DNA of 64,000 nt, from the NCBI GenBank assembly GCA_052139675.1, contig JBKQWE010000026.1, positions 2,703 to 66,702 on the forward strand, given 5' to 3'. Below the pieces are notes generated by a model, which saw only the letters and a program-made list of their open reading frames with translations, was not told the origin of the DNA and did no database searches. A program made the position numbers and the translations under genes. The stretch's first letter is position 1. Each line of letters starts with the position of its first letter. The stretch comes from Candidatus Brocadiia bacterium. Its GTDB lineage: Bacteria > Planctomycetota > Brocadiia > CAIUPP01. Shown piece after piece: positions 3,525 to 44,922 of this stretch.

Positions 3525-3539
3525 GTCACCCTCGCAGCA

Positions 3540-4364: not shown

Positions 4365-4426
4365 GCCCCATCCCCCTTTCCGGCGCGTGCCGTCAGCCCC
4401 ACGCTGAGCGCACGCGCGTCCCCGAG

Positions 4427-5530: not shown

Positions 5531-5590
5531 GCGTTCTCTCTTGGCTCACATGTTGCGCAGCCGTCCGTGCCGCCGCGCCCGCATTTCATT

Positions 5591-7024: not shown

Positions 7025-7094
7025 GTTTTCTTCTCCTGTCGTTCAATGACCGCTCGCAGGGAAACGATCCCCGCGGCGAATTCCGCGGCAAACC

Positions 7095-8519: not shown

Positions 8520-8589
8520 GTTTTCCTCTCCTGTCGTTCCATGGCCGCGCGCAAGGAAACGATCCCTGCGTCGAATCCCGCGGGAAAGC

Positions 8590-9741: not shown

Positions 9742-9784
9742 GATTCCTCCTCCTGTGATAGAATGGCCGCTCGCGCGGCGCGTA

Positions 9785-19488: not shown

Positions 19489-19593
19489 GGTACCTGGTCC
19501 GGGTGGCTAGGAACGTAAAACTCGGCGACCGTTTGCAGGACTCTACCACGAGGCGCTGACAACCGCAACAGGGCCCGCCCGAGGCGGAAATTC

Positions 19594-19622
19594 TTGACAC
19601 TTCGCATGCGCGGGGTTATATA
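19594..19622 (+). promoter_or_regulatory. sigma70-type promoter: TTGACA - 17 nt - TATATA, upstream of the 19663 CDS
   Basis: Perfect -35 hexamer at 19594-19599, a 17-nt spacer, and TATATA at 19617-19622. GGAGA ribosome-binding site at 19652-19656, ATG at 19663. Confidence 0.5.
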
Positions 19623-19662
19623 GGCGCGGGAATCCGCCTGAGTGTTTCCCTTGGAGATTCGC

Positions 19663-21135: not shown

Positions 21136-21150
21136 GCCGTCCGCGGTCGC

Positions 21151-22425
21151 TCACCGGCCGGCTTCGGAAGTTCTTCCGTAGCGCGCGACCCATTCCGGCG
21201 TGCCGGCCAGGCCGCCCCAACCGGCCGGATCATGGTTGGCTTCAAAGATCTTCCGCAGCGTCGGGTCATAAGGCGCCAGGGCGGTCCAGAGCACGCCCGG
21301 CCCATTGGCCCATCGCGGGTCGGGCTTTTCGCCGTCAATCCGCTGGAACTTTGCGCCCTTGATTTGCTGGTTCCACATGAAGTCCCGATTGGTGGCGATG
21401 AGGCGGGCGATGTCCTCTTTCGTGAAGACCAGGCCGTGCTCGTACGCCGCCACGATCCCTGCGACATCCGCCGAGTAGTATCCGCCGTTCGGGTGCACGC
21501 CCACCCAGTGCTTGAGAGAGCCATCCGCCTTGTGGTCCCACGGCCCGGCCGGATCCCAGTAGTCCCAGACGAAGTACTTGCCGTCGTCGCGGAGCTTCAT
21601 GCGGGACCTCTGCACGCGCTCCCACTTCTCGGCGCGCTCCAGGTAGATGGCCTTGTGCGTCACGTCGTGCATGGCGAGGAGCCACAGGACGATCTGGTTC
21701 TCCTTGTTATCCGGCAGGGAGATGCCGCCCTTGTTTCTCTCCTCGTATCCCTCGGTCCACTTGCCGGTCTTGGGGTCAAGCCCGACGCGCGGGGTGACGT
21801 AGAGGCCGCCTTCCTTCGTCTCGCGCCAAGCGCCGCGCGCGTCCCATTTCTCGAACGTCCGATCGGAAAGCCGAAGGTATTCCTCGGCCTTGGCGCCGTA
21901 TTTTTCCTTCAGGGCGGGCGTCTTGAGAATCTCGCCGGCCATCAGCACCAGCGGGCGAAGGAACATTTCCTCGCCCAACTGGCTGTCCGTAATGGTGTCG
22001 GCGCCTTCGATGCCGGCCTGGCTTTGCTCGCTCGCGAAGTTCTTGGGCCAGCCGATATAGCCGTCCGGCTCCTTCACGCCGCGCTTGACGACGGAGTCGC
22101 CCCAATCTATCAGCCGGTCCACCCATTCGCGGTCGCCGGTCGCCATGTAGCCGTAGTAGAAGCCGTCGAGGAACGGAGTGACAAGCCAGCCGATCTCCTC
22201 GCCCATTTCCTTGTCGCAATAGCGGTTCCGGCTGTCGCTGATGATGTTCTGCTTCCACCGCTGCATCCACTCCTTGGCGAGCGCCGGATCCATGGCGGGT
22301 CCCGCCGGAGCGGCAATTCCTGCTGCCGCGTCCTTCGTCTGGCCCTGGGCGATCGAAAAGCCGCACGGAAGAATCCACGCGAGGAGCAGCCCGCAGATCG
22401 CGCCGGAATACAGTCTACCTGACAT
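21151..22425 (-). CDS. secreted protein, same uncharacterised family (copy P4; subfamily B)
   Basis: Signal peptide MSGRLYSGAICGLLLAWILPCGFSIAQGQT. Shares WMQRWKQNI...YCD...GEEIGWLV...FYYGYMATGDREWVDRL with P5 and P6. GAAAGGG ribosome-binding site. Confidence 0.7.
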   Translation of the reverse strand: MSGRLYSGAICGLLLAWILPCGFSIAQGQTKDAAAGIAAPAGPAMDPALAKEWMQRWKQNIISDSRNRYCDKEMGEEIGWLVTPFLDGFYYGYMATGDREWVDRLIDWGDSVVKRGVKEPDGYIGWPKNFASEQSQAGIEGADTITDSQLGEEMFLRPLVLMAGEILKTPALKEKYGAKAEEYLRLSDRTFEKWDARGAWRETKEGGLYVTPRVGLDPKTGKWTEGYEERNKGGISLPDNKENQIVLWLLAMHDVTHKAIYLERAEKWERVQRSRMKLRDDGKYFVWDYWDPAGPWDHKADGSLKHWVGVHPNGGYYSADVAGIVAAYEHGLVFTKEDIARLIATNRDFMWNQQIKGAKFQRIDGEKPDPRWANGPGVLWTALAPYDPTLRKIFEANHDPAGWGGLAGTPEWVARYGRTSEAGR

Positions 22426-22495
22426 ATTGGCCCTTTCAAAAGTGCTGAAGACGGAGCAATTTACCTCGGCCTCGAATCCCGCTTAGCTCGTGACG

Positions 22496-22584
22496 CGGTG
22501 TCATTCCGAGCGGAGCGAGGAATCTCACACGCAGCGCATCGCAACGTTCTATGGTGTGAGACCTTTCGCTGCGCTCAAGGTGAC
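22496..22584 (+). repeat. ~90-nt palindromic repeat element, copy A (imperfect ~28-nt inverted arms gtcattccgagcgSagcgaggaatctca / tgagaccYttcgctgcgctcaRgg)
   Basis: Near-identical copy at 43303..43390. Inverted, expanded copy at 62519..62642. The track ORF 22498..22818 (MSFRAERGISH...) is a translation artefact of it. Confidence 0.6.
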
Positions 22585-22663
22585 TTTCATAACGTGTGTA
22601 CTGAACACTACATTACGCTCGTCTGTGAGTATCACAAGGCCGCGACCAAGTCAACCGCCGCCT

Positions 22664-23209
22664 TCACCCCGCGGCCTTTTTCTCGGCCGCCTTCGCGCGG
22701 TACTTCGCCAGCAGCACCGGCACCTGCTCGGGCGTCATGCGGCCGTGGACCTCGTTGTCCACCATCACGACGGGCGCAAGGCCGCAGGTGCCCAGGCAGC
22801 GGGCGGCTTCGAGGGTGAACATGCCGTCCTTGCTCGTCTCGCCGAAGTCCACGCCCAGTTCTGCCTTGAGGCGCGCCGCGATCTCGCTGCCGCCCTTGAC
22901 GTAGCACGCGGTGCCGAGGCATGCATTGATGATGAATTTGCCCGAGGGCCGCAGGCGGAAGAAATGATAGAAACTCGCGACACCCGTCACTTTCGCCGTC
23001 GGTATCTGCAGGAGTTGCGCGACGGCGTCCATCTGCGCGCGGCCGAGGTAGCCGAAGTGCCCCTGCACTTTGTGCAGCACGCTGATCAACTGGCTCTTCG
23101 GTTCGGGGCCGCGGAGCACCTCCTCAATGTACTTGACGATGGGCTCCGGCAGCGCAGCGCGGCTGACTTTTTCGACCTGGCGCCGGTTATCGGTCGAGCT
23201 CTTGATCAT
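22664..23209 (-). CDS. NuoE-like [2Fe-2S] thioredoxin-fold subunit of the hydrogenase (HydC/HndA-type)
   Basis: CxxxxC...CxxxC pattern (NACLGTACYVKG ... CLGTCGLAPVVMV) typical of NuoE / 24-kDa subunits. 4-nt overlap with hydA. Confidence 0.75.
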   Translation of the reverse strand: MIKSSTDNRRQVEKVSRAALPEPIVKYIEEVLRGPEPKSQLISVLHKVQGHFGYLGRAQMDAVAQLLQIPTAKVTGVASFYHFFRLRPSGKFIINACLGTACYVKGGSEIAARLKAELGVDFGETSKDGMFTLEAARCLGTCGLAPVVMVDNEVHGRMTPEQVPVLLAKYRAKAAEKKAAG

Positions 23210-24966
23210 CGGATCCCTCGTGGCAGTTTGGCCGAATAAGTGGTGTGCAGCAGTTCGCGCGCCTTCGGGGAGAAAACTTCGCCGAGGAACTCGCTGTAAA
23301 GCTGCTGGACGGCCGGGTTCTCATGGGAGCGCCGCAAGGTCTTGGCGCCGTCAATCGCGTAGAGCGCACGGGCGCGCGCGGCGAGCAGCGCCGGGTCGAG
23401 CGCCTTCACGCCGCGCGGCGGATAGGGCTGGCCGCCGCCGCCGATGCAGCCGCCGGGGCAGGCCATGAGCTCGATCATGTGGAACTGCTTCTCGCCGCGG
23501 AGGACTTCGTCGAGGATCGTCTTCGCGTTGGTCAGGCCGTTGGCCACGCCGACGCGCAGAAGCTGGTCGCCGATCGCGACGGTTTCCTCGCGAAGCCCTT
23601 CGACCGCGCGGACCTCCTTGAATTCCACCCGGTGCCCGGGCTTGCCGGTGGTGAGTTCCACGGCGGTGCGGAGCGTGGCCTCCATCACGCCGCCGGTGGT
23701 GCCGAAGATGTCCCCCGCGCCGGTGGCGATGCCCAGCGGCGCGTCGAATTCGCCGTCGGGCAAATGGACGAAATCAATGCCGTAGGACTTGATCATCCAG
23801 ATCAGTTCGCGCGTGGTCAGGACGGCGTCGGTATAGGGAACGCCCTGGGCGAAATAGTGCTCGGGCCGGCGCGACTCGTACTTCTTCGCCACGCACGGCA
23901 TGACCGCGACGACGTAGATGTTCGCCGGGTCCAGCCCGGCCTTCTGCGCGTAGTAGGTCTTGATCAGCGCCGACAGCATCATCATCGGCGAGCGGCAGCT
24001 CGAGGCGTTCGGGATCAGCTCGGGATAGAATTTCTCGAGGAAGTTGACCCAGCCGGGCGAGCAGCTCGTCAGCATCGGCAGCGGGCCTTCGCCCTTGAGC
24101 CGGCGGAGGAACTCGTGCGCCTCCTCGACGATCGTCAGGTCGGCGGCCAGGTCGGTGTCGAACACGCGGTCCACGCCGAGCCGCCGCAGCGCCGTGACCA
24201 GCTTGCCGGTGGCCGGCGTGCCCGGCGGCAGCTCGAAACCTTCGCCGACGGCCGCGCGGATCGAGGGCGCGGTCTGGACGACGACGTGCTTCTTCGGGTC
24301 CGCGATGGCCGCGAACACCTCTTCCGTGGCGCGCTTCTCCAGGAACGCCGCGGTCGGGCAGACGTTGATGCACTGCCCGCACTGGATGCAGACCGAGTCG
24401 CGCATCGTGGAGCCGTGCGCGGGCGTGACGACGGCGGAGAAACCGCGCCAGTGGCGGCTGAGGTTGTACACGCCCTGGACTTCGGCGCACACGCGCGTGC
24501 ACCGGCCGCAGAGGACGCACTTCTCGGAATCGCGCACCACCGAGTCGCTCTCGTCCTCGATCGCGAAGCGCTTGCGCTCGCCCTCGAAGAGCCGCTCGCG
24601 GACGCCGAACGCGTAGGCCAGGTTCTGCAGCTCGCAGTTGCCGTCGCGCTCGCAGGTCTGGCAGTCCTTCGGGTGGTTGTCGAGCAGCAGCTCGACGATG
24701 TCGCGCCGCGCCTGCCGGATCTCGGGCGAATTGGTCTGGACGATCATCCCTTCCCAGACCGTCGAGCTGCACGCGGCCATGTAGAAGCCCATGTCCTTCA
24801 CGTCCACGATGCAGACGCGGCATCCGCCGGCCAGGCTCAGGTCGGGATGGTAGCAGAGGCGCGGGATGTGAATCCCCAGCGTCTCGGCCGCCTCCATGAT
24901 CGTGGTGCCTTCCTTGACGGAGATCTTCTGGTCGTCCAGAGTCAGCGAGATCATTTTCTTGCTCAT
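23206..24966 (-). CDS. hydA: [FeFe]-hydrogenase catalytic subunit (M3-type: [2Fe-2S] + His-ligated [4Fe-4S] + 2x[4Fe-4S] ferredoxin + H-cluster domain)
   Basis: True start is ATG 24966 (MSKKMISLTL) with a GGGAGTGG ribosome-binding site. The 301-codon upstream extension in the track is a shadow ORF. H-cluster motifs L2 VMPCVAKKYE and L3 ELMACPGGCIGGGGQP are intact. L1 reads TSCSPGW rather than TSCCPxW. Confidence 0.8.
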   Translation of the reverse strand: MSKKMISLTLDDQKISVKEGTTIMEAAETLGIHIPRLCYHPDLSLAGGCRVCIVDVKDMGFYMAACSSTVWEGMIVQTNSPEIRQARRDIVELLLDNHPKDCQTCERDGNCELQNLAYAFGVRERLFEGERKRFAIEDESDSVVRDSEKCVLCGRCTRVCAEVQGVYNLSRHWRGFSAVVTPAHGSTMRDSVCIQCGQCINVCPTAAFLEKRATEEVFAAIADPKKHVVVQTAPSIRAAVGEGFELPPGTPATGKLVTALRRLGVDRVFDTDLAADLTIVEEAHEFLRRLKGEGPLPMLTSCSPGWVNFLEKFYPELIPNASSCRSPMMMLSALIKTYYAQKAGLDPANIYVVAVMPCVAKKYESRRPEHYFAQGVPYTDAVLTTRELIWMIKSYGIDFVHLPDGEFDAPLGIATGAGDIFGTTGGVMEATLRTAVELTTGKPGHRVEFKEVRAVEGLREETVAIGDQLLRVGVANGLTNAKTILDEVLRGEKQFHMIELMACPGGCIGGGGQPYPPRGVKALDPALLAARARALYAIDGAKTLRRSHENPAVQQLYSEFLGEVFSPKARELLHTTYSAKLPRGIR

Positions 24967-24998
24967 CGTTCCACTCCCAAAGCAGCAACGGCTCGTTG

Positions 24999-27017
24999 CT
25001 ACCCGCGGCGCAGACCCGCGCATTTCCCGGCGGGGCAGCGTTTCTCGACGACGTGCGCGACGTATTCGTCCCGGTAGTGCGTCAGCGTGCTGAGGATCGG
25101 GTTGGGCGCGTTGCGGCCAAGACCGCAGAGGCTGGCCTTGCGCATCAGCTTCGCCAGCCGCTCGAGCCGCTCGATGTCCTCCGGCCGGCCCTGGCCGGCG
25201 GTGATGCGCTGGAGGATTTCCAGCATGCGCTTGGTCCCTTCGCGGCAGGGCGTGCACTTGCCGCACGATTCGTCCTGCGAGAACGTCAGGAAGTATTTCG
25301 CGATGTCCACCATGCAGTCGTCCTCGTCCATCACGATCATGCCGCCGGAGCCCATGATGGCCCCGACCTTGGCGAGCGAATCGTAGTCCACCGGCGTATC
25401 GAGCAGTCTCTCCGGCACGCAGCCGCCGGCGGGGCCGCCGGTCTGGACGGCCTTCAGCCGCTTGCCGTTCGGCGCGCCGCCGCCGATGTCCACAACGATC
25501 TCGCGCAGCGTCGTCCCGATCGGCACCTCGACCAGCCCTGTATGCTCGACCTTCCCGGCCAGCGCGAAGGCCTTCGTCCCGCCGCTGTTCGCCGTGCCGA
25601 TGCGGCTGAACCAGTCGGCGCCGTAATAGATGATCGCGCCGATGTTCGCCAGCGTCTCGACGTTGTTGATGACCGTCGGCTTGCCCCACAGGCCGCTCTG
25701 CGTCGGATAGGGCGGGCGGATGCGCGGCTCGCCGCGCTCGCCCTCGATCGAGTGGATCAGCGAGGTCTCCTCGCCGCAGACGAACGCGCCGGCGCCCAGG
25801 CGGATTTCGAGGTCGAAGCTGAAATCCGATCCGAAGATCTTCGCCCCGAGGACGCCGTGCTTGCGGCACTGGTCAATGGCGTTCTGGACGCGCTGGATCG
25901 CCATCGGGTACTCGGCGCGGATGTAGAAAAACCCGCGCTGCGCGCCGATAGCGTAGCCGCCGATGATCATCCCCTCGATCACGCTGAACGGGTCGCCCTC
26001 GAGCATGCTGCGGTCCATGAACGCGCCCGGGTCGCCCTCGTCGGCGTTGCAGATGATGTAGCGCACCGGCTCCTTCGCCGCGGCGGCCATCTGCCACTTC
26101 TGCCCGGTGGGATAGCCCGCGCCGCCGCGCCCGCGCAATTTCGAGCGCGCGATCTCGCCGATCACCCACTTCGGGTCGCCCTTCTCCAGCACCTTCGCCA
26201 GCGAATGGAAGCCCTTGTAATGGACGTACTCGAAGATGTTGTCCGGGTCAATCACGCCGCTGTTGCGCAGCGAAATGCGGCACTGGCGGTTGAAGAACGC
26301 CACGTCGCCGTACAGGTTGAAAAACCGCTGGCTGAGCGTGTGCCCCTTCAGCCGCAGGCGCTCGACCGGCTTGTTCGCCAGCACGTGGCTGGCGACGATC
26401 TCGTCGAGGTCCTTCTCGTCGGCGATGCGGTACAGGATGCGGCTCGGCAGGACGAGCAGGTGCGTGACCTTCCCCGATTCCTGGGCCCCGCAGAGTCCGA
26501 AGCAGCCGGCGGACAGGACGGCGCAGTGGCTCTCGTCGAGCCCGGCGGCGCGGAGTTTCTTCATCAGGAGGCTGCTGAAGTTCTGCTCCAGGCTTCGCCC
26601 GCAGCGCTGGCCGGAGCAGAAGAGGAATTCCTGCAGCGGCAGCGCCTCGGCGGAGCTGTCGAGCACGTGGTCGAGCCGCGGCTTGCCGCCGAGGATGTGG
26701 TCGGTGAAAATATCGTGGACGGCGTCGCGGTCCACGCGCTGGTATTTCACCGGGATCTGGCCGGGCATCAGAACGCGGACGATCGGCTCGCAACTGCACC
26801 GGCCGGTGCAGCCGGTCTGCCGCACGACGATATCCTGTCGGCCGGACGTGGCGATGTGCTTGCGGAATTCCGCCAGAACCTCCGCCGCGCCGGAGGCGTT
26901 CTCGCACGTCGCCGAGCCGACCGAGATGCGGATTTTCGTCGCATCCTCGCGCGCCGCCAGAGAGCGCTCGGCCTCGTCGGCGAACTTCTGGTACTGCGTC
27001 GCGATTGGGCTGTCCAT
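24999..27017 (-). CDS. NuoF-like NAD(P)H-binding flavoprotein subunit of the hydrogenase (HydB/HndC-type) with N-terminal thioredoxin-like [2Fe-2S] domains
   Basis: GRGGAGYPTGQKW (FMN/NADH site), ESCGKCTPCREG ([4Fe-4S]), and N-terminal Cys clusters. Confidence 0.8.
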   Translation of the reverse strand: MDSPIATQYQKFADEAERSLAAREDATKIRISVGSATCENASGAAEVLAEFRKHIATSGRQDIVVRQTGCTGRCSCEPIVRVLMPGQIPVKYQRVDRDAVHDIFTDHILGGKPRLDHVLDSSAEALPLQEFLFCSGQRCGRSLEQNFSSLLMKKLRAAGLDESHCAVLSAGCFGLCGAQESGKVTHLLVLPSRILYRIADEKDLDEIVASHVLANKPVERLRLKGHTLSQRFFNLYGDVAFFNRQCRISLRNSGVIDPDNIFEYVHYKGFHSLAKVLEKGDPKWVIGEIARSKLRGRGGAGYPTGQKWQMAAAAKEPVRYIICNADEGDPGAFMDRSMLEGDPFSVIEGMIIGGYAIGAQRGFFYIRAEYPMAIQRVQNAIDQCRKHGVLGAKIFGSDFSFDLEIRLGAGAFVCGEETSLIHSIEGERGEPRIRPPYPTQSGLWGKPTVINNVETLANIGAIIYYGADWFSRIGTANSGGTKAFALAGKVEHTGLVEVPIGTTLREIVVDIGGGAPNGKRLKAVQTGGPAGGCVPERLLDTPVDYDSLAKVGAIMGSGGMIVMDEDDCMVDIAKYFLTFSQDESCGKCTPCREGTKRMLEILQRITAGQGRPEDIERLERLAKLMRKASLCGLGRNAPNPILSTLTHYRDEYVAHVVEKRCPAGKCAGLRRG

Positions 27018-27315
27018 GGGCGTTCCTCAAGGCAATCAGAAACGGACCGGCGGGCCTGCGCTCTGCAAGGGGCGAGTTTCCCGGCCACCATCGGGTTGCG
27101 GAATTATATACCGGAACCCGGCGGTCGCGCAACACTGGATACTCGCGCGTCGGCGCTCCGCGGCCTCCCGGATTAGCGGCTATGGCAGGGGACTGCTCTT
27201 AAATTGAAGACGGTTATTGTTCTCTCCGCAAGCGGCCTTCAGTTACCGCCGGAATTACCCTTTGAAGTAACCGCTTGCAAAATGGCATACGTGGGTCATA
27301 AATCGAGTAGTCGCA

Positions 27316-28485
27316 TCAAATCGCGGCAAAAACTCCCGCCGCTCCCAAAATCGCCATGGGCTTCGGGTTTAAGAGAAGCATAAGCTCGTGCGTATGCCTA
27401 CGAGCGTTCCGGCCCGCTTCCGCGTGCACATGATCGCCTCTGCCGCCGAGCGTACTGAACTTGCTTTTGACAGGCTGTGTTGTAACGTAGAAGTACTTCT
27501 GCGATACCTCGCGCACCTTCTTGCCGGATAACCCGTTAGAGCAGTCATGGTCAGGGAAAGTCAGGATGGCTCTGGCACCGCGTGCTGCAATGGTGAGAAG
27601 TAAATCGTCCAAAGCGTTTGAGGACTCGCTGGTCACACTATACTTCGACCGAGGCCGCCGCGCTGGTTCTGGGTAGCGGCCGGCACCAGACACTTCGCCG
27701 CATTCACCTCGCGAAATCGTCTCCAAGACATGGTAGAAACGGCTGTAGTGAACGCCAGAATACGGTGGATCAATGAACACCAAGTCGTCATGAAGAAGTT
27801 CTTTAACTGCATCGTTCGCGTCGGCCACCTGCGCCTCGCCGCGGCAAAGCGCAAACTGGTTCGCCAATGAGTCAAAGGCGACACGGGTTTTGAATACAAT
27901 ATCCTTGTTCCATGCCTCTTGGAGGAATCTCCTCGCTGTCCGGGTCGGCTGGAAGGGCTGTGCTGTATGGCCGGGTGCGGCGGCGCATTGGCTCGCGGCT
28001 TGGATCAAAGCAGCTAGCGCAACCGTTTTGCCAGGTTCACCAGTGGGCAGGCTGCTCCTCAGCGCGTCTATCCAAACGGTCTGTTTCGGACTGTAATAGT
28101 GGCCACCGTAGGCTCTCGTTACAGGGAGGTGTGATTGTCCCATACTCCAAAGACGACAATCGGCAACGACGGCCCGGGTAAGCTTTACAGGAGCGGGAGA
28201 CCGTGTGGCACTACAAACGCTCACTGCACGGCGGTGCCACTCATACCAAATGGGCTCACCTTCGAGCTTCATCTGCCGATGCAAAACCGCGCCAGCGAGA
28301 ACGGTGCTGTAGCGCTGCAAGTCATAGGCGAGAACGGGTATGGAAAACTGACGTGCCACATGAATCGCAACGACACCTGATCCAGAGAACAAGTCCACGA
28401 AGCGCCGAGCATAAGGAGCTTGTCGGCCTAGCAGTTCGCCCAGGCCATTCTGTAACATTGCTCGCTTTGATCCCATGTACTTCAT
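27316..28485 (-). CDS. D12-class N6-adenine DNA methyltransferase (Dam-like)
   Basis: Start ATG 28485 (MKYMGSKRAM). Motifs YMGSK (D12 motif), FVDLFSGSGVV (SAM-binding FxGxG), LVFIDPPY (catalytic DPPY). 4-nt ATGA overlap with the upstream gene. Confidence 0.8.
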   Translation of the reverse strand: MKYMGSKRAMLQNGLGELLGRQAPYARRFVDLFSGSGVVAIHVARQFSIPVLAYDLQRYSTVLAGAVLHRQMKLEGEPIWYEWHRRAVSVCSATRSPAPVKLTRAVVADCRLWSMGQSHLPVTRAYGGHYYSPKQTVWIDALRSSLPTGEPGKTVALAALIQAASQCAAAPGHTAQPFQPTRTARRFLQEAWNKDIVFKTRVAFDSLANQFALCRGEAQVADANDAVKELLHDDLVFIDPPYSGVHYSRFYHVLETISRGECGEVSGAGRYPEPARRPRSKYSVTSESSNALDDLLLTIAARGARAILTFPDHDCSNGLSGKKVREVSQKYFYVTTQPVKSKFSTLGGRGDHVHAEAGRNARRHTHELMLLLNPKPMAILGAAGVFAAI

Positions 28486-28487
28486 GG

Positions 28488-29345
28488 TCAGTTCTTGAGC
28501 ACTTCGAGCCCGCCGTGTTCTGTAATTTGAAAATCGACGATACCGCTCACCCAAGTTGGGTTTCTATGCACGTTCCAAAAGCGACTACTTTGCACCAGAA
28601 TTTCGTCTAGGAACTTCCGGAACCTAACGATCCGATGATAAGCAACAACTTGAACATTGTCCAAATCAGGAAACTTGTTCGGCTTCGGTATCGGTGGCAC
28701 GGTGAAATCAATCTCCGAGATGCGTTGCACCCTGATTTTCAAACTCTCCACGTCGAGTACGCGAAAAGCGGGGTAAGGGAACAGATGGTCAACGTAGTTG
28801 GCACGGTCACGGTGCCCGACGTCGGAACAATCGTCAGGCTGCTGCGCTTTCTCATTCCTTGTAAACAGCGGGTCAGTTGCGAAATGACTGTCACTCTTCA
28901 CCTCGCGCCAATACAGGCAATGTTCTCTATCGCCAGCATTCTTAGTCCCGAAAGTGCAAACATGTTTGCCGCATTGCAAGCCTAGTCGGACGATGCGCCT
29001 ACGCCGGTGGAGATGAAAGCAACCGAGCAAATGTGCAATTGCTCGTACTGCGTAATGGCTGGAATAGTAACCCACACTCGAAGCCCAGAGTGGGCTGGCT
29101 TCCGTCAACGCTGCCGAGATCAAGAAGCTATGGACAGCGCGCAGCCAAATGTCGACAGCAGCGGTTGCGTACAGTGACGCTACCTCTGGCCGAACTGTGA
29201 CCGCAGGGTTCGCCTTCGGCGGCATGACTTGTTCCAAGGCCGTTGAGAGCGAAGCCGCTGGCGGGAAAGCATATTGAGCACGGCGGTTGTTCAGCGGCTT
29301 AAACGCTACCTGCAAGCGTGTCTGAAGCCCTCGGTCGATAGTCAT
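28488..29345 (-). CDS. hypothetical protein (possible His-Me-finger / HNH-like nuclease; speculative)
   Basis: No family recognised. Contains Cys/His-rich CFHLHRRRRIVRLGLQCGKHVC and a VDHLFP...N...H stretch reminiscent of DUF1524/HNH cores. Low G+C. 4-nt overlaps with both neighbours. Confidence 0.5.
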   Translation of the reverse strand: MTIDRGLQTRLQVAFKPLNNRRAQYAFPPAASLSTALEQVMPPKANPAVTVRPEVASLYATAAVDIWLRAVHSFLISAALTEASPLWASSVGYYSSHYAVRAIAHLLGCFHLHRRRRIVRLGLQCGKHVCTFGTKNAGDREHCLYWREVKSDSHFATDPLFTRNEKAQQPDDCSDVGHRDRANYVDHLFPYPAFRVLDVESLKIRVQRISEIDFTVPPIPKPNKFPDLDNVQVVAYHRIVRFRKFLDEILVQSSRFWNVHRNPTWVSGIVDFQITEHGGLEVLKN

Positions 29346-30718
29346 ATCGATCCCAACTCGCGCCGAACGTGAATTCTGTGCTTCACGGCAAGGGTTGCCC
29401 GCGCGTCAGGATCGAGTTTAGAGACATCTTGAGTGCCTACAACAGACGCCCAGAGCGTGTCTCGAAAACGCGCTAATCCGCCGCTCCCTAAAAAGCCTTT
29501 ATCCTTAAACTTCTTTTTCGCCACAAAACGACCGCCATCGACCAAGCCAGCCCGCGCCATAACTTCGCGAAGCCACTTAATAAGAATTCCCTTAGACGCA
29601 TCAGAAACCAGCGGCTGCTTCGCACTTTTGAGTTTCCAGATGCAGGCGGGCAAGAGCGTGAGGAATGTTACCACTACACGACCTTGATAGGCCACGTTAT
29701 CCGGGTCCAATTCTTCGCTATCGGCCAAGTCTTCCTTGCGTCCCGTCGCGTCCAACCATCCGTCCAGGCATTGGGCCAGGAATTCTGCCTGCGCCTCGAG
29801 ACTCGATACCCCTTCGTCGAATAAATCGTCGAGCACGTCCTCAATTGCAGAATTTAAAGTGGCTAGAGTCACGACATCCTTCACCCCGAACTTGATGCCA
29901 GGTATCTGGATCATGCCAACAAGCGGACCAATTTCGAGCATCAGCTTGCGTCCAAGGTCCTGAGCCCGTTCTTTGTTGTCTAGTGGCCCTCTTGCACCGC
30001 GTGCCGTCGGGAACAAGTCTGCGACCAAGGACCGATCCACTTTCTTCTGATAGAAGTTAACGTCAATGAATATTTGCGCTTGCCTACGAGGCGGGTCTTT
30101 GGGTTGATCGAGGTCGCGAAATATCTCCGCAGGAATTTCCCAAATAGCAGATGGCTGCGATTCCTTAAGCATCATAATTGCAAAGTACGCTCCGTTGATG
30201 CGATGTTGGCCGTCGATCACAGAAAAATTCAGCTCTGCGTCATTCTCATCGAACGTTAATGTCGCCGCGCCGTGTTCTCTTTGGATTCGGAATTCTTCCA
30301 ACCTCGCGCCGTTCACGTGGAGTAAGACATTTGAGAATGTCGGATACTCACTTCTCTGGTACCCTATAACATTACTGATTTTCGGCGGCCATTCTCTGCC
30401 GGACTCGTTCTTTTTAGGCTCGTAGATTTCACGAAAGCATTTATCCAGTTTCTTGGGCGCGTCAACGACCTCCTGTTGCAACAGGTAAGCCGCGATCTGT
30501 GCAACCCGCTTCCAGTCCAACGATCGTTGGATGCTGCGCACCTTCACTGGATTCCGATGTGGCGAATGCGGTTTTCCAGGCCACCACGTCATGAGCTTCT
30601 CTACGTTCAAAGCGCAGAGGCAGTGTTTCGCTTCGTGCAATTCCTTTGGTGCAAATGGATTAGCTGGCACAATGACGGAAATCCTGTGAATTCCATCAGA
30701 GTTTTCCGATGATGTCAT
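29342..30718 (-). CDS. DGQHR-domain protein (DndB/DpdB-like ParB/Srx-fold)
   Basis: Exact FSVIDGQHRINGAYFA motif. Size about 458 aa, as in DndB-like proteins. First gene of the overlapping trio. Confidence 0.7.
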   Translation of the reverse strand: MTSSENSDGIHRISVIVPANPFAPKELHEAKHCLCALNVEKLMTWWPGKPHSPHRNPVKVRSIQRSLDWKRVAQIAAYLLQQEVVDAPKKLDKCFREIYEPKKNESGREWPPKISNVIGYQRSEYPTFSNVLLHVNGARLEEFRIQREHGAATLTFDENDAELNFSVIDGQHRINGAYFAIMMLKESQPSAIWEIPAEIFRDLDQPKDPPRRQAQIFIDVNFYQKKVDRSLVADLFPTARGARGPLDNKERAQDLGRKLMLEIGPLVGMIQIPGIKFGVKDVVTLATLNSAIEDVLDDLFDEGVSSLEAQAEFLAQCLDGWLDATGRKEDLADSEELDPDNVAYQGRVVVTFLTLLPACIWKLKSAKQPLVSDASKGILIKWLREVMARAGLVDGGRFVAKKKFKDKGFLGSGGLARFRDTLWASVVGTQDVSKLDPDARATLAVKHRIHVRRELGSI

Positions 30719-30939
30719 ACGGTGACTCCTAATTCCGACAATCCCCGGCGACTAAATCCGGGTCGGCATGTTCAAATCTCTTCGGCCCGAGAGACGCGAA
30801 GCGGGCGACGCCGTCCTAACGCGCTGCTCTTTGCTGTACCTCGCTTCCCGTCTTGTCGGACTACAGCCGTCTTGCCAAGGCAGAATCTATCGGCCCACAG
30901 TCGCGTTGTCAAGGAAAATAACGACATCCTTCGGCCCCA

Positions 30940-32400
30940 TCAGACCTTCCTGTCGGGTTCGCCGAAGACGAGCGGGAGCGAGAAGGTGAAGGTGGAGCCT
31001 TGGTTTTTCCCCCTGCTTTCCACGCGGACGGCGCCGCGGCAGGACTGGACCAGTTTGTTCACCAGCGCCAGGCCGAGGCCGGTGCCCTTCACGCCGGCGG
31101 TGCGGCGGATGCGGCCGAATTCCTGGAAGAGGTTCGCCTGCTCCTCCGGCGTCAGGCCCGCGCCGGTGTCGGCGACGTGTACGGAGAAGCCGGCCGCATC
31201 GCGCGTGACGGAGATTTTGACCCCGCCTGCGCTCGTGTACTTGATGGCGTTGTTCACGAGATTCAGCGCCAGCGTCCGCACGACGAACGGATCGCCTCGC
31301 ACGGGAAATTCCTTCCACGGCTCGATCCGGATCGAAAGCCCCTTGTCCTCGGCCAGGATGCGCTGATTCTCGACCACGTCTTCCAGGACGGCCTTCAAGT
31401 CCACCGGCTCCTGCGTCACAACCAGCGTCATCTGGTCGAGCTTCGAGAGCGACAGGAAGTCATCCACGAACGACTGGATGCGGTCGGTCGAGCGCGTCAG
31501 CAGGCGGACCAGCGCATCAAGGCGCGCGCGGTCCGCGAGGACTTTCGGGTCGCGCAGGAGCGGGATGGCCATCGCCAGCGGCGAGAGCGGTGCGCGGAGT
31601 TCGTGGACCATGAAGCGGAAGAACTGCTCGCGCTCGCGCTGCAAGCGGCGCAGCGCGGTGACGTCGCTCATTACGGCCACGCTGGCGGGCCGGCCTTCCC
31701 ACTCGCTGCGGCGCGCGCAGACGATCACCTCGCGGATCGAGCCGTCGGCGTGGAGCAGCCTGGTCTCGTACTCCTCGGGCGCGCCGCCGCCGGAGACGCG
31801 CGCGTGATAGACGTTCAGGTCGCGCTGCCGGACTTCTTCGTCGAGGATTTCGCCGTACTCGCAGCCGAGCAGTTCTTCCGCACGGCGGCCGAGCAGGTCG
31901 CAGAAGGCGGGGTTGACGAAGCCGATCCGGGCGTTCTCCACGACGACCAGCCCGCTGCGCATGTCGCCGACGAGCCGGCTGAAGCGCTCCTCGGAGCGGC
32001 GATGCGCCTCGACGGCCGAGAAGAGGTCCCAGAGCAGCCGCGCGGGATCGCCGGTGATCACCGAGGCGCCGGCGGGCAGAACCCGACGAATGATGCCGGA
32101 CATCGAAGGGTCGCCGGTGACGTCAATGACGAACTGCGGCCGCGATCGAGCGACGGCGTCAGCCGCGTCCTTGTAGATGGGCAGCTTGCGCTCGGCCGCC
32201 GCTTTGACGCCGGGCGCCCGGCCGCTCCGGTCGCAGACGGCGACCAGTTCGAACTCCGGGTCGGCCAGCAGGTGCGGCAGAAGCGCGCTGCCGCCTTTGC
32301 CCAGGCCGACAAGCAGTGTTCGGATTCCCATGGGTCCGGATTTCCCGTCCGATCGTCCTGCAAAGGACATGAGACTATACGGTCGAATGGCCGCCGTCAA
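30940..32400 (-). CDS. sensor histidine kinase (N-terminal Rossmann-like domain + PAS + HisKA + HATPase_c)
   Basis: H-box FMVHELRAPLS; N/G1/G2 boxes LVNNAIKYT, DTGAGL, GLGLALV. N-terminal TLLVGLGKGGSALLPHLLADPEFELVAVCDRS looks NAD(P)-binding. The start could instead be the internal Met at 32331. Confidence 0.75.
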   Translation of the reverse strand: MTAAIRPYSLMSFAGRSDGKSGPMGIRTLLVGLGKGGSALLPHLLADPEFELVAVCDRSGRAPGVKAAAERKLPIYKDAADAVARSRPQFVIDVTGDPSMSGIIRRVLPAGASVITGDPARLLWDLFSAVEAHRRSEERFSRLVGDMRSGLVVVENARIGFVNPAFCDLLGRRAEELLGCEYGEILDEEVRQRDLNVYHARVSGGGAPEEYETRLLHADGSIREVIVCARRSEWEGRPASVAVMSDVTALRRLQREREQFFRFMVHELRAPLSPLAMAIPLLRDPKVLADRARLDALVRLLTRSTDRIQSFVDDFLSLSKLDQMTLVVTQEPVDLKAVLEDVVENQRILAEDKGLSIRIEPWKEFPVRGDPFVVRTLALNLVNNAIKYTSAGGVKISVTRDAAGFSVHVADTGAGLTPEEQANLFQEFGRIRRTAGVKGTGLGLALVNKLVQSCRGAVRVESRGKNQGSTFTFSLPLVFGEPDRKV

Positions 32401-32410
32401 GGTGGCAGGG

Positions 32411-33223
32411 CTACTTCACCTCAAACTTGACGCTGACGATCGCGGTGATCTCTTTCTCGTAGGAACTCGTGTCATTGTTGCCCTCCGCCGAGGTGGTGAA
32501 AACGCCTTTCGGGTTGATCTGCATGACGCCCATGCGCGCCTCGACCAGCTTGCCGAGCCGGCCGTTGGCGTTGTTGACGATCTGCTCCGCGCGCACCGTG
32601 GCGTCCCGGGTCGCGTCGGCCAGCATGTTGATTTTCAGTTCGGAGAGTTTCGTGTAGAGATAGCACGGCGCGCCCGAATCAATCTCGACGCCGTCCTTGA
32701 TCAGGCTGGTGACGTTGCGCGAGACGTCGGCGACTTTTTTCATGTCGGTGGAACTGATGAGGACGGTCTGGGCGAGCGTGTACATCTCGACCTTGTCAGT
32801 GGTGATGATCGTCGGCGCGGCGGCGGGCGCGCCTGCGGCCGCGGGCGCCGCGGGGACGATATCCTGGTGGAACCGGCGCGAGGTGTTGATGGCCGACAGG
32901 GTGATGTCCGATTCCGGTATGCCGCCGGCGATCAGGAACGCCCGGGTCTTGTCGGACGCGCCCTTCAAATCGTCGTAGGCCTTGACCAGGTTCGGGTCCT
33001 TCGCGGTGATGGCGCCGCACCATGTGACCACGTCGGAGACGATGGCCTTGCGCGCGGAGCCGGTGACCGCCAGCGTCTTGGGCTCCAGCTTCACCGCCAG
33101 GTAGCACCAGCAGAGGATGGCGACGCATGCGACGTTCGCGACAGCGAAAAACACGCCGCCGGCGCGAAGCGTGACGACGATTTTTTCAGGCAGATTAGCC
33201 GGCTTGCTGTTGGTCTCGGACAT
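32411..33223 (-). CDS. SIMPL (DUF541) domain protein with N-terminal membrane anchor
   Basis: Single N-terminal transmembrane segment, then a domain with SIMPL-like motifs (AINTSRRF..., VEMYTLAQTVLISSTDM, ITAIVSVKFEV). Confidence 0.5.
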   Translation of the reverse strand: MSETNSKPANLPEKIVVTLRAGGVFFAVANVACVAILCWCYLAVKLEPKTLAVTGSARKAIVSDVVTWCGAITAKDPNLVKAYDDLKGASDKTRAFLIAGGIPESDITLSAINTSRRFHQDIVPAAPAAAGAPAAAPTIITTDKVEMYTLAQTVLISSTDMKKVADVSRNVTSLIKDGVEIDSGAPCYLYTKLSELKINMLADATRDATVRAEQIVNNANGRLGKLVEARMGVMQINPKGVFTTSAEGNNDTSSYEKEITAIVSVKFEVK

Positions 33224-33250
33224 GGATGAGCTCCTCTCAGGTTTTGGTTT

Positions 33251-33373
33251 CTAATACCGAGCGCCGAGTTCGCAGCCGCGGAGCGAGCGGAAGACTGCGA
33301 GCAGTCCGAGGAGGTTGATGACGGCGAGACTGAGAATGATCCAGGACCGGCGGGTGGAGATGGCTTTGCGCAT
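33251..33373 (-). CDS. small (40 aa) hydrophobic ORF MRKAISTRRSWIILSLAVINLLGLLAVFRSLRGCELGARY; not in the track (<60 aa)
   Basis: AAGGGG ribosome-binding site 7 nt upstream of the ATG. One predicted transmembrane helix. Sits immediately upstream of the SIMPL gene. Could be spurious. Confidence 0.25.
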   Translation of the reverse strand: MRKAISTRRSWIILSLAVINLLGLLAVFRSLRGCELGARY

Positions 33374-33769
33374 GGGCGCCCCTTGCGCTTCGCTTCAGTG
33401 CGCGGATTGCCGACACGGACACCGCCCGGCTTCCGGCGACTGATCGCCCCTGCGCAAGTTACGACCGGCGTGCGGCAACGTCTATATTCGAATCTCCCGC
33501 GTGGGAGTTATCAGCCGTGTTCTGCCGAACGCGAGGGATTATATCAAATTGGAACAGTTTCACCAAAAATAGCAGTTCGACGACGAGAGTTATCCACAGT
33601 TTATGCACACTCCTGTTGCATTTTAGCTCAGTGGGTCGCGTCTATGGAAGCACTCGGAGAAAGCGCGAAGCCGCTGCTTGCGCGTGAAGCAGCGACGCGC
33701 GGCGGGTTGCGCCGCGCGTCTTCGGATCGTTCAGCCGCCCGGAATCTGCTTACCGCGCCAGGAGCGAAA

Positions 33770-35002
33770 CTAACCCTTATGCCAGCCCATTCGTTCGGCC
33801 ATCTCGCTGAGTAGGCTGCAGTACGCCAGCGTGTGGGCGACGGCGCTCAGCGGAAGGATGCGCACGCTGTAGCCGGGCACGTCAATCGCCGCATCGCCCG
33901 GCCGCCACGGCAGATCGAGCCAGAGCAGCCCCTCATGATCTTTCAGCGACGCGGGCCGCCCGTAAGGAGAAGTGTAGATGAACCGGATTCCCCGGCGCAG
34001 GATGGCGCCGACCTTCTGGACATCCACCGGCGCATAGCCCAGGTGGATGTACACGTCGCCCTTGCCCAGGTCGGCCGGCGTCGCGGTCGCCAAGTCGCTG
34101 TTGGTGGTTCCCCAGCGGACCGGGTAGTTGCTCTCCTTGGGCAGCCCGAGGATGTGCGGATAGGAGTGCCCGACGGCCGTCGCCGCGACGCGCTTCCCGG
34201 CGCGGTGCGCCTGGACCATCCAATCGCCGGCCCGCGTCAGCGCGCGCGACTGCCGATCGAGCGTCTCGATCATGGAATCAACCACCTGCAGATACTCCGC
34301 CGCGACGTGCCCGGCGGGCAGCGGCGGAACGTACCAGTCCTTGCTGTGGAAGAGCGGCACGAGCCACGGCTCGCGCCGGTTGCTCTCGTGCTGGGTGAGC
34401 GAAGTGTTGCGCGCGAGGGCGCCCTCGAGCCAGACGCTCATCCAGATCGCCGGCATCTGGCCCTTGCGGGTGCACGCGGCGATCATCTCGCCGGTGGTCA
34501 GCCAGCCGCGGACGAGCTGTTCGAACGGGCGGAAAGGCGCCAGCGGCCGATGCTCGCCCATCGCGTGCAGCCCTTCGTCGGCGCGCGCTCCGCCGGTGAA
34601 GCCGGCGATGCGGCGGCGGAGTTTCGCTTCCAGTTCGTCGGGGCGGCCGATGACGAAAAGCCGCCGGCGGCTGTTCAGTTGCTTCTGAAACGCCTCGTCC
34701 TCGGCCGGCTTCCACTGCCGGGGATCGGGCAGCCCGAAGAACGCAACGTCCTTGCTCACGCCGGGCCCTTCCGCCCAGCGGATGCCCATCAGCCCGCCGG
34801 CGCGGCCGGAGAACTCCGAGCGCGAGAAACTTCCCACCGGCGGCAGGGACAGATTTCCACCGGCCAGAAGCGGCTGGGCCATCCTCTCGCCTAGCCGGGT
34901 GAAATGCGCGGTCTCGCGCCGCACGGCGGCGGTCCGCCGGCTCGCCTCGGCCAGGAATTCCTGCGCCGGGGTGCGAGCGGTCTTCCGAGCTGCTCGTGGC
35001 AT
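33770..35002 (-). CDS. hypothetical protein
   Basis: Long ORF co-oriented with and 28 nt downstream of the SIS-domain gene. No family recognised. Confidence 0.45.
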   Translation of the reverse strand: MPRAARKTARTPAQEFLAEASRRTAAVRRETAHFTRLGERMAQPLLAGGNLSLPPVGSFSRSEFSGRAGGLMGIRWAEGPGVSKDVAFFGLPDPRQWKPAEDEAFQKQLNSRRRLFVIGRPDELEAKLRRRIAGFTGGARADEGLHAMGEHRPLAPFRPFEQLVRGWLTTGEMIAACTRKGQMPAIWMSVWLEGALARNTSLTQHESNRREPWLVPLFHSKDWYVPPLPAGHVAAEYLQVVDSMIETLDRQSRALTRAGDWMVQAHRAGKRVAATAVGHSYPHILGLPKESNYPVRWGTTNSDLATATPADLGKGDVYIHLGYAPVDVQKVGAILRRGIRFIYTSPYGRPASLKDHEGLLWLDLPWRPGDAAIDVPGYSVRILPLSAVAHTLAYCSLLSEMAERMGWHKG

Positions 35003-35029
35003 GGAACGTTCTCCTGAAGAGAGTTTCGG

Positions 35030-35791
35030 CTACAGGTCTTTGACGCGTGAGCGGTAGCGCTGGATCATCTCGCTGTTGAACGCATCGCCGCCGGGCAGAT
35101 TCGCGCTGCGGAAAATCGGCGGCTGCAAGCCGCGGCGGAGCATCTCCGTCACCGCCTCGATCACCATGCGATGCGCGATGTACGCATCCACCATCGTCGA
35201 GGTCGGCGCCAGCGCCACGTTGAATCCCTCCACCTTGAACGCCGCGTCGCCGTAGGGATTCTGATCGTCAATCGCCAGGTCGGCATAATCGAAGAGGTGC
35301 TTCTTGTTGGGATGGCGGATCGGGTGGTCGAGCGGCAGCTTGCGCCGCCAGTTCGAGGAGGAGATCGCGATGATCTTCGCCCCGCGCTTCTTGGCCTCTT
35401 CCGCCGCGTCAATCGTCGTGGGATTCATGCCGATATTGTGGAAGATGATCAGCAGGTCGTCGGCCCCGACGCCGTAGTAGCGGATGAGGCAGTTGGCGTA
35501 GCCGGTGGTGCGCTCGACCTCCAGGTACTTCAGCGCCTGGCAGACGGGCGTGATGTCGTGGCCGATGATCGGGTTGATGTTGGCCAGGCCGCCGGCGCGG
35601 AAGAACATCTCGAAGATCATCAGGCAGGTGTGCCCGCCGCCGCCATAGACGTGCACCAGCCGGTCCTGCTCATAGGCGTCGGCGATCATCGCGCCGGCGC
35701 GCACGAACTTCGCGGCGTTGCGCTTCTCGACCGACGCGAGCTTTGCGCCCACGTCCTTCAGATATTCCTGCCCGTAGTCGCGCTTGCGCAT
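35030..35791 (-). CDS. SIS (sugar isomerase) domain protein
   Basis: RLVHVYGGGGHTCLMIFEMFFRAGGL (P-loop-like SIS nucleotide/sugar-phosphate site), GADDLLIIFHNIGMNPTTIDAAEEAKKRGAKIIAISS. Confidence 0.65.
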   Translation of the reverse strand: MRKRDYGQEYLKDVGAKLASVEKRNAAKFVRAGAMIADAYEQDRLVHVYGGGGHTCLMIFEMFFRAGGLANINPIIGHDITPVCQALKYLEVERTTGYANCLIRYYGVGADDLLIIFHNIGMNPTTIDAAEEAKKRGAKIIAISSSNWRRKLPLDHPIRHPNKKHLFDYADLAIDDQNPYGDAAFKVEGFNVALAPTSTMVDAYIAHRMVIEAVTEMLRRGLQPPIFRSANLPGGDAFNSEMIQRYRSRVKDL

Positions 35792-35890
35792 GGCTGCATC
35801 CTTTCCGTTCCAGGAGCCGCACGAAAGGCCACATTCTGACGACTGGGGCCGCTCCGGTCAAGCAGTTCGGCGGCGGCCTGCCGCGGTTTT

Positions 35891-38325: not shown

Positions 38326-38385
38326 ATCGGCCCTTTCAGAAGCGATGCAAGTTCGTTTTGTGATTACCACAAGGCTGCGGCCGAG

Positions 38386-44717: not shown

Positions 44718-44922
44718 AGCGACCCTTTCCGATCCGTTCAACAAGCCGCGCCTTCATGCTGCGACAGGCTGACGCCAGCGAGCGACTTTACCACAGGGAA
44801 CCGGCAACCTCAATAGTCACGGCGCCGCGCGGCCGGCGATCAGCATGCGCGCGCCGCCGGGCTCCCGACCGGCCGGGATTGAGGTTCACCCGCCCCATGA
44901 GGACAAGGGAGGCTTCCGTCCT

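Follow-up and report, generated by a model that had tools for sequence, protein, structure and literature searches.

A DGQHR protein, a predicted HEPN-fold protein and an adenine methylase in a low-G+C islet: a candidate module with restriction–modification logic

Proteins with a DGQHR domain and their DUF262 relatives are nucleoside triphosphate (NTP)-dependent sensors or regulators of DNA modification, and the DGQHR domain itself, related to the DUF262/GmrS N-terminal domain, is marked by a QR pair, a DGQ[HQ]R motif and an FxxxN motif (PMC4619093). Both DndB and DpdB are ATP-dependent, the former acting as a negative regulator and the latter, an ATPase, assisting in base insertion, and a DndB-like protein binds both ATP and GTP. 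An operon type combining a ParB-superfamily protein, a HEPN protein and a DNA methylase was listed by Anantharaman et al. in 2013, in one row of their Table 1, under the HEPN family MAE_28990 (PMC3710099). Here we analyze a 64,000-nt stretch of contig JBKQWE010000026.1 from a Candidatus Brocadiia bacterium (hereafter, the window), in which an islet at positions 27018–30939 carries three genes, A, B and C, for a DGQHR protein, an orphan protein predicted to adopt the HEPN fold, and an adenine DNA methylase. Comparison across genomes tips the balance slightly in favor of viewing the trio as a compact, horizontally mobile defence cassette with restriction–modification (R-M) logic, and thereby lends support to the proposal of the first-pass annotation, made from the DNA letters alone, that a foreign-looking, self-contained module of R-M type resides here.

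The A–B pair and its exchangeable methylases

Scanning one genome per species returned 56 loci of this kind, nearly all in metagenome-assembled genomes, and viral contigs contributed one more; DNA upstream of B is available for 56 loci (55 of the 57 scanned, together with one Sulfotelmatobacter contig). At all of these 56 loci, the gene immediately upstream of B is a homologue of A, and in most loci the stop codon of A overlaps the start codon of B. The loci are distributed over 14 or more lineages, comprising Acidobacteriota, Planctomycetota, Verrucomicrobiota, Bacteroidota, Ignavibacteria, Patescibacteria, Alphaproteobacteria, Syntrophales and other Deltaproteobacteria, Elusimicrobia, Nitrospirota, Eisenbacteria, Firestonebacteria, Neomarinimicrobiota and FCPU426, and co-localisation of the trio, for which a gene-neighbourhood check had been set beforehand, is observed in dozens of genomes other than that of the window. 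Pairwise identities are correlated with r = 0.82 between A and B, and with r = 0.49–0.50 between A and C and between B and C.

An adenine methylase gene is found within about 2.2 kb of the pair in 52 of the 55 informative loci and belongs to one of three families. The long D12 type represented by C occupies 40 of the 55, always on the same strand and 3–52 nt after B (a further copy is truncated); a classical Dam takes its place in seven, of which four have it on the opposite strand, one has it upstream of A and one at a distance of 2.1 kb (217–236 bits against the Dam model TIGR00571 for the Dam copies scanned, four in number); and an MT-A70-like methylase with a DPPW motif is present in four (assigned to Pfam PF05063 in locus L064). 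In the tree of A plus B, which cuts across taxonomy, the Dam-type and MT-A70-type loci are scattered among the C-type loci, indicating that the methylase has been replaced repeatedly. The exchange of three adenine-methylase families beside a single A–B core suggests that selection acts on N6-methyladenine (m6A) itself rather than on a partner protein, which would be the signature of a relationship between a modification and its read-out, as in R-M systems. This is the strongest inference that we draw, and on such comparative grounds a self/non-self logic of R-M type appears rather probable.

The ways in which the module decays are those of R-M systems: B is fragmented in L062 with the MT-A70 gene left intact, and in L006 the methylase following B is cut to 81 aa, a full C-type methylase being encoded 4.7 kb upstream. 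B is also fragmented in L061. The surviving methylase of L006 might cross-protect. This locus (GCA_040960765.1, positions 1291–11115) unites a B-type trio and a trio of a sister type, designated X, in one defence island, with a GmrSD_N+AAA pair separating the two trios and an OLD/UvrD (Gabija-like) pair following downstream; more generally, Type I R-M, GmrSD_N+AAA and OLD/UvrD genes are the neighbors of some B-type copies and of the X-type trio in defence islands.

From its composition and phylogeny, the module looks horizontally acquired, because the G+C content at third codon positions (GC3) of the three genes in the window is 4 standard deviations low, the A–B pair falls below its flanks in G+C at 50 of 52 loci, the mean difference being 7.4 points, and the A+B tree is incongruent with taxonomy. 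The G+C content is 0.542 in the islet against 0.645 in the rest of the window, and in successive 500-nt pieces it is 0.49–0.57 from about 27000 to 31000 against 0.63–0.71 on either side. GC3 values of 0.566 (A), 0.579 (B) and 0.591 (C) compare with a mean of 0.844 (standard deviation 0.064) for the 45 other called open reading frames (ORFs) of the window, corresponding to z = −4.0 to −4.4; the lower G+C than the flanks, perceived at first reading, is thus real.

The three proteins and a sister trio

Protein A contains the exact DGQHR motif that had been recognized at the outset (residues 169–173), together with the QR pair (64–65) and FxxxN (217–221), all three signatures being invariant in alignments of 38 and 42 homologues. 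It passes the cut-offs of the DGQHR-domain model TIGR03187 (80.3 bits; cut-off, 58.85) and of PF14072, the Pfam DndB family (43.6 bits; 29.1), but fails the DndB equivalog TIGR03233 (14.5 bits; 328) and TIGR04172 (44.3 bits; 450), and PADLOC returns a marginal match to DndB (E 0.016) and none to DpdB. On the question, raised in the first-pass annotation, of whether A groups with canonical DndB in a genome having dndCDE, these scores give no support to such a grouping, and dndCDE are not found nearby. A has 843 homologues, the best 120 of which are 64–76% identical to it, and its conservation across phyla amounts to 55–76% identity. A HEPN domain in its C-terminal half, as reported for DndB, was considered and could not be confirmed.

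Protein B matches nothing in Pfam, NCBIfam, PADLOC or PHROGs, in keeping with the initial impression that it lacks a recognizable family; none of the 41 aligned members of its family has a Pfam match at E ≤ 10, and a sequence profile search of the PDB gave nothing outside its own family. Because the B profile retrieves only 111 clusters from 1.84 billion representative proteins, all being of the same family or fragments, B is by sequence criteria a sharply bounded orphan family. In a 5.8-billion-protein collection, 323 homologues were found at E ≤ 0.001, and the best 120 of these are 51–66% identical and mostly 270–295 aa long, none having a Pfam domain and any name given by the source being 'hypothetical protein'. 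Neither A nor B has a match among 72,556 plasmids, nor does B among 50,697 phage records; in IMG/VR, the B-type trio has one match, which is located at the extreme tip of a contig of 117 kb and may belong to flanking host DNA.

The predicted model of B is confident (predicted local distance difference test, pLDDT, 85.7; predicted template-modelling score, pTM, 0.87) and identifies B as a HEPN-fold protein, built as an up-down bundle of four helices, with helices 2 and 3 separated by an insert. Its best structural match is 2hsb, a member of a HEPN subfamily reported to be without the canonical His and to use an alternative His from the helix 2–3 insert (PMC3710099). The predicted fold rules out a His-Me-finger (HNH) nuclease, as which B had first been tentatively interpreted, and the Cys/His patch pointed out in that connection is not conserved across the wider family. 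HEPN proteins canonically have the catalytic motif Rx4-6H where helix 3 ends, the Arg being followed by a polar residue (PMC3710099). In B, residues 178–187 read HRDRANYVDH; of these, H178, R179, Y184 and D186 do not vary among 49 full-length members of the family, and conservation of H187 is 98%. An R181-x5-H187 pair (Rx5H) is present in the window protein, but R181 varies across the family; the constant feature is R-D-x3-Y, namely R-x4-Y with Tyr at the place expected for His, followed by D-H, or alternatively R-x7-H. The wider family has 26 invariant residues, including H97, R101, E141, H142, H178, R179, Y184, D186, R238 and R243, and also R261. A near-identical contig, L001 (ENA ERZ25039501 contig_73440; 99.2% identical to window positions 18491–35874 over 17.4 kb), carries the same trio, and its B differs from that of the window only by D175N, a residue for which 94% of the family have Asp.

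Protein C passes Pfam PF02086 (53.5 bits; cut-off, 22) and has YMGSK, FSGSG (residues 33–37) and DPPY (239–242), with motif I before motif IV in the α-class order, so that its initial assignment as a D12-class N6-adenine methyltransferase with YMGSK, FxGxG and DPPY holds; its PADLOC matches are to generic Type II methylase models (MTase_II, E 1.6e-21). With 24.8 bits against a cut-off of 114.85, C does not pass TIGR00571, the model of the Dam subfamily, and it is therefore considered to represent a distinct, longer D12 subfamily. Sequence searching yielded no relative of solved structure. The annotated relative nearest to C that adjoins a known enzyme family (BglII/BstYI) has just 26% identity, and no target motif of C could be derived.

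The sister X-type trio is composed of a DGQHR protein (451–724 aa), the protein X (about 420–460 aa, no family) and a long D12 methylase, usually in the order DGQHR protein, unclassified and putatively helical protein, and methylase. X has 77 homologues and no match in Pfam, PADLOC or PHROGs, and every X context examined includes a DGQHR protein and a D12 methylase. The X-type methylases are 42–45% identical to C and of the same subfamily, and the DGQHR proteins are only about 34% identical to A, in the core only; in L006, a distant DGQHR protein of 507 aa and an X of 429 aa accompany a C-type methylase 42% identical to C. An intact X-type trio (WP_278332734, WP_278332733 and WP_278332732) is carried by plasmid pRt932 of the cultured Rhizobium tumorigenes 932, and in an Omnitrophota genome the trio directly follows a Type I R-M operon. 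In the cultured Spirosoma taeanense (CP053435.1; L068, 6182–7841), IS1-like and DDE_Tnp_1 transposase genes lie between the DGQHR gene and X, and the system may be inactivated there, and in Fluviicola (L069, 2594–7383) the order is methylase, DGQHR protein and X, the DGQHR protein of 724 aa having a large extra N-terminal region. B and X were considered as demonstrable homologues and show no significant similarity (BLASTP E 0.88; hhalign probability 2.3%), sharing a short motif only: the sole stretch aligned by hhalign, at that same probability of 2.3%, places D175, R179, D180 and Y184 of B over D195, R199, N200 and Y204 of X. The aligned positions vary little or not at all in either family, giving a common R-[DN]-x3-Y, which may serve as a lead but does not prove homology.

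Organization of the islet and its surroundings

ORF calling confirms three consecutive minus-strand genes, as first annotated (Table 1). Within the maximal ORF of C (27316–28554), the ATG at 28485 is most likely the start, the protein beginning with MKYMGSK, because homologues align from residue 1, the Met of this sequence. The A/B junction, GATATGACT, is an ATGA with a 4-nt overlap, whereas the B/C junction, AACTGACCATG, consists of a stop codon, two bases and an ATG (TGAccATG), leaving a 2-nt gap; of the 4-nt overlaps supposed to exist at both junctions, the former therefore stands and the latter arises only when a CTG start is assumed for C. In the sequence before B or C, no good Shine–Dalgarno element was found, which fits translational coupling. 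Promoter-like sites are no commoner in the region than expected by chance, and the sigma-70-like site upstream of A remains a candidate only.

Table 1. Coordinates of the islet, its genes and their sequence elements in the window
Feature	Position	Strand	Description
Low-G+C islet	27018–30939	.	Three genes and two flanking intergenic regions
Sigma-70-like promoter candidate, TTGACA-17-TAGATT	30884–30912	minus	Upstream of A; consensus scan, 10/12 matches
Shine–Dalgarno AGGAG	30726–30730	minus	7 nt before ATG of A; read from sequence
Gene A	29342–30718	minus	458 aa; DGQHR-domain (DndB/DpdB-like, putatively ParB/Srx-fold) protein
Gene A, QR pair	within 30521–30529	minus	
Gene A, DGQHR	30200–30214	minus	
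Gene A, FIDVN	30056–30070	minus	
Gene B	28488–29345	minus	285 aa; predicted HEPN-fold protein, unclassified family
Gene B, WxRAVHSF	29124–29147	minus	
Gene B, GYYSSHYxxR	29043–29072	minus	
Gene B, EH	within 28920–28928	minus	
Gene B, HRDxxNYxDH	28785–28814	minus	
Gene C	27316–28485	minus	389 aa; α-class (D12) N6-adenine DNA methyltransferase
Gene C, FSGSG	28375–28389	minus	
Gene C, DPPY	27760–27771	minus	

Neither tRNA genes nor Rfam matches were found at the islet, nor were tandem repeats or flanking repeats, whether direct or inverted; the annotation of contig L001 shows neither an integrase nor a transposase within ±10 kb, in agreement with what had been read from the window. Likewise as first noted, none of the 45 other window ORFs is a dnd, ssp or dpd gene; the sole protein with a 3′-phosphoadenosine 5′-phosphosulfate (PAPS)-reductase domain is CysD, and no TGT-family gene is among the families listed for the window. 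Near a Sulfotelmatobacter locus, a Queuosine_synth gene is present on the other strand and is not conserved elsewhere. Weak PADLOC matches among the other window ORFs (mad3, mad8 and BrxP) are most likely generic domain matches to phosphodiesterase and sulfatase genes, a histidine kinase and CysD.

The islet directly adjoins an operon for a NADH-dependent [FeFe] hydrogenase (22667–27017, minus strand), comprising a group A6 large subunit, a NuoF-like subunit and a 2Fe–2S thioredoxin-like subunit; the gene for the beta subunit of acetyl-CoA synthase/carbon monoxide dehydrogenase (ACS/CODH) lies at 100–1221. Three paralogues of about 1.2–1.3 kb with about 80% DNA identity (21154–22425, 37090–38370 and 43446–44744, all on the minus strand) are probably the three window proteins that match the Pfam family Phosphodiest (type I phosphodiesterase/nucleotide pyrophosphatase), and may explain the generic mad3 match. 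The only other window ORF with GC3 as low as that of the trio (0.60) encodes 137 aa at 59478–59888 (minus strand) and may be a second foreign gene. In other loci, uvrB is located just upstream of the A–B pair in L064 (4139–7039) and L065 (4801–7824), which are otherwise unrelated, and this could be coincidence or a preferred insertion neighbourhood. In the Sulfotelmatobacter loci L002–L005, the methylase is followed, about 640 nt downstream, by a gene for a PDDEXK_5 (PF11645) protein of 173–177 aa, a nuclease fold; this protein did not appear at the other examined loci and is probably unrelated to the trio.

Proposed mechanism and relation to known systems

In the mechanism that we propose, C would methylate adenines of the host DNA and thereby mark self, and A and B would form an obligate complex that responds to DNA without this mark. 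A, a DGQHR protein of putative ParB/Srx fold, would be the NTP-binding and DNA-binding sensor or switch, and B, with the HEPN fold and the invariant R-x4-Y/His cluster, would supply or control the nuclease step, the target being either invading DNA or cellular RNA, the latter with abortive infection as the outcome. To our knowledge, this latter outcome is that of every characterized HEPN nuclease. The role assigned to A as an NTP-dependent DNA sensor or switch is proposed by analogy to GmrSD, BrxU and SspE, which sense modification, and to the ATP-dependent DndB and DpdB. A physical complex of A and B is likely on the comparative evidence; both A–B binding and protection by methylation are what we infer. 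For catalytic activity of B, the sequence leaves the chances even. Cleavage may be of DNA by A, of DNA by B, or of RNA by B; in the 2013 HEPN survey, R-M-linked HEPN proteins were considered to be RNases released when restriction fails, and the ParB protein to be the DNase (PMC3710099). We also entertain, tentatively and as a rather doubtful prospect, the idea that A–B is a new kind of restriction effector, in which adenine methylation would be read by a ParB/Srx NTPase switch that in turn licenses a Tyr-substituted (R-x4-Y) HEPN enzyme. This enzyme would either act on DNA, being then the first HEPN directed at DNA, or serve in abortive infection as an RNase gated by methylation.

Several observations weigh against a defence cassette of this kind. 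Most loci, including that of the window, are solitary islets among housekeeping genes and not in defence islands; intact A–B pairs occur with no methylase nearby in three of the 55 informative loci (L012, L014 and L023), and in L066 as well; and the methylase comes last in the gene order. The conserved canonical Rx4-6H of HEPN proteins is absent from the B family, and B could be non-catalytic because its invariant pair is R179…Y184 instead. Searches with Pfam, PADLOC and NCBIfam recognized no PD-(D/E)xK, HNH, GIY-YIG or PLD DNase domain in A or B. The predicted model of A is of only moderate confidence (pLDDT 74.8, pTM 0.54), its helical C-terminal half (about residues 285–457) matched nothing, and a Foldseek search of A against the PDB was empty. 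DndB itself acts as a regulator, not as a restriction enzyme.

In an alternative that we judge unlikely, A–B would be an accessory or regulatory module of the methylase, resembling DndB and DpdB, that controls the site or amount of modification or represses the operon, no restriction being involved. The characterized DGQHR-type proteins do sit in modification modules (the negative regulator DndB and the ATPase DpdB), most loci are solitary among housekeeping genes, and no classical DNase domain was found, all of which would suit such a module. However, the repeated swapping of three unrelated methylase families and the opposite-strand position of four of the seven Dam copies argue against a specific protein–protein partnership with the methylase; moreover, A and B co-evolve far more tightly with each other than with C, persist without a local methylase in a few loci, and include a HEPN partner of the sort typical of conflict systems. 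Equally improbable in our estimation is a toxin–antitoxin or abortive-infection pair, in which a HEPN RNase toxin, B, would be held in check by A, with the methylase as a hitch-hiker or else an orphan or addiction gene in its own right. The HEPN domain is typical of toxins, translational coupling and co-evolution tie A to B, and A–B is the invariant core, methylase-free in L012, L014, L023 and L066. Against this stands the adjacent adenine methylase in 52 of 55 loci, 40 of them with the gene on the same strand 3–52 nt from B, which is too consistent for hitch-hiking, and the substitutes are always adenine methylases and never genes of other kinds, a restriction that points to a functional requirement.

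A split, modification-dependent (Type IV-like) enzyme akin to GmrSD or SspE, with an HNH or His-Me subunit, is very improbable. The resemblance of the locus to a divided DUF262+DUF1524 pair, seen at first reading, is retained for the sensor half, since the DGQHR domain is a relative of the DUF262/GmrS N-terminal domain, with which it has QR, DGQ[HQ]R and FxxxN in common, but is lost for the nuclease half, the model of B being of the HEPN fold and not ββα-Me; PF03235 and DUF1524 match neither A nor B, and a modification-dependent enzyme beside its own methylase would be self-destructive. Finally, an ordinary Dnd or Dpd member with its remaining genes elsewhere in the genome, as the label 'DndB' given to A by Pfam and some database annotations would imply, can practically be dismissed, because A fails the DndB equivalog (14.5 versus 328) and TIGR04172 (44.3 versus 450) with only the E 0.016 DndB match and no DpdB match in PADLOC, dndC/D/E, ssp and dpdA are absent from the window and from every locus examined, and the invariant partners are B and an adenine methylase.

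If the trio is indeed a defence cassette with R-M logic, it would constitute a minimal three-gene immune system that marks self as R-M systems do and dispenses with the classical restriction nuclease folds. It would also give a function to the orphan B family (111 clusters among 1.84 billion representatives) and a role to 'DndB-like' DGQHR proteins outside the phosphorothioation systems, and a comparative-genomics prediction of 2013, not followed up since, would gain a test case. The swapping of Dam, MT-A70-like and long D12 methylases beside one A–B core raises the question of how a single reader complex would cope with all of them: they would either have a common target motif, or m6A would be read generically. 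Should A–B prove to be the new kind of effector tentatively considered above, the X-type, MAE_28990-type and B-type operons would together form a widespread 'ParB–HEPN–methylase' immune family missing from PADLOC of 2023. In PADLOC-DB v2.0.0 (2023), the trio is absent: B and X have no match, A has the marginal DndB match, and C matches as a generic Type II methylase.

The trio is worth comparing with described systems. Classical Type II R-M systems with a Dam-family methylase, and R-M-linked HEPN RNases such as PrrC with EcoprrI, resemble it in that the methylase adjoins the effector genes, the methylases are interchangeable, the genes are mobile and low in G+C, and effector or methylase decays; HEPN proteins in R-M loci have been proposed to be back-up suicide RNases (PMC3710099). 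In contrast to the Type II systems, the trio has no PD-(D/E)xK, HNH, GIY-YIG or PLD domain, and A is 55–76% identical across phyla. Classical restriction enzymes diverge much faster than A, and its high conservation sets A apart from them. With GmrSD, BrxU and SspE, the trio shares a DGQ[HQ]R sensor domain, in A of putative ParB/Srx fold, combined with a nuclease-type effector that would read the modification state; in those enzymes, however, DUF262 is fused to a DUF1524 HNH domain, whereas here the effector is a separate predicted HEPN-fold protein. Unlike GmrSD, moreover, the trio has its own methylase and should therefore attack unmodified DNA, and PF03235 and DUF1524 give no match. The likeness to DndB and DpdB resides in the DGQHR domain of A, with its signatures intact, and since DndB has been described as a ParB-like domain fused to a HEPN domain (Makarova 2013), the ParB–HEPN pairing has a precedent in a single protein; the differences are that A fails the DndB equivalog and has no DpdB match, that sulfur and deazaguanine machinery is missing, and that the partners are a stand-alone HEPN-fold protein and an m6A methylase. 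The original judgement that the architecture is neither Dnd, Ssp, Dpd nor GmrSD is thus upheld by the failed equivalog models, the absent genes and the lack of PF03235 and DUF1524 matches.

That the architecture is not described at all, as had also been stated, is too strong, in view of the ParB + HEPN + DNA-methylase row of Anantharaman et al. (PMC3710099). The MAE_28990-type operon has the same threefold composition (ParB-superfamily protein, free-standing HEPN protein, DNA methylase) and was read as an R-M-linked conflict system; the table row describes neither the type of ParB protein, the class of methylase, the distribution nor the function. The MAE_28990 family is listed with Rx4-6H, whereas the invariant pair of B is R-x4-Y. 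Pfam contains a model named HEPN_MAE_28990. B is not filed as a member of this family, the 41 B-family members having no Pfam match. In the literature searched, no paper beyond the 2013 table row was found to mention the MAE_28990 family or such a trio, and a 2024 reappraisal of Dnd, a 2026 BREX survey, a ParB-CTPase preprint and the Ishtar preprint do not describe it. Taken together, the sequence comparisons present the trio as a genuine, uncharacterized variant of the predicted ParB–HEPN–methylase architecture foreseen in 2013, to which it adds an orphan family of predicted HEPN fold, one defined subfamily each of DGQHR proteins and of methylases, and the X-type sister system.

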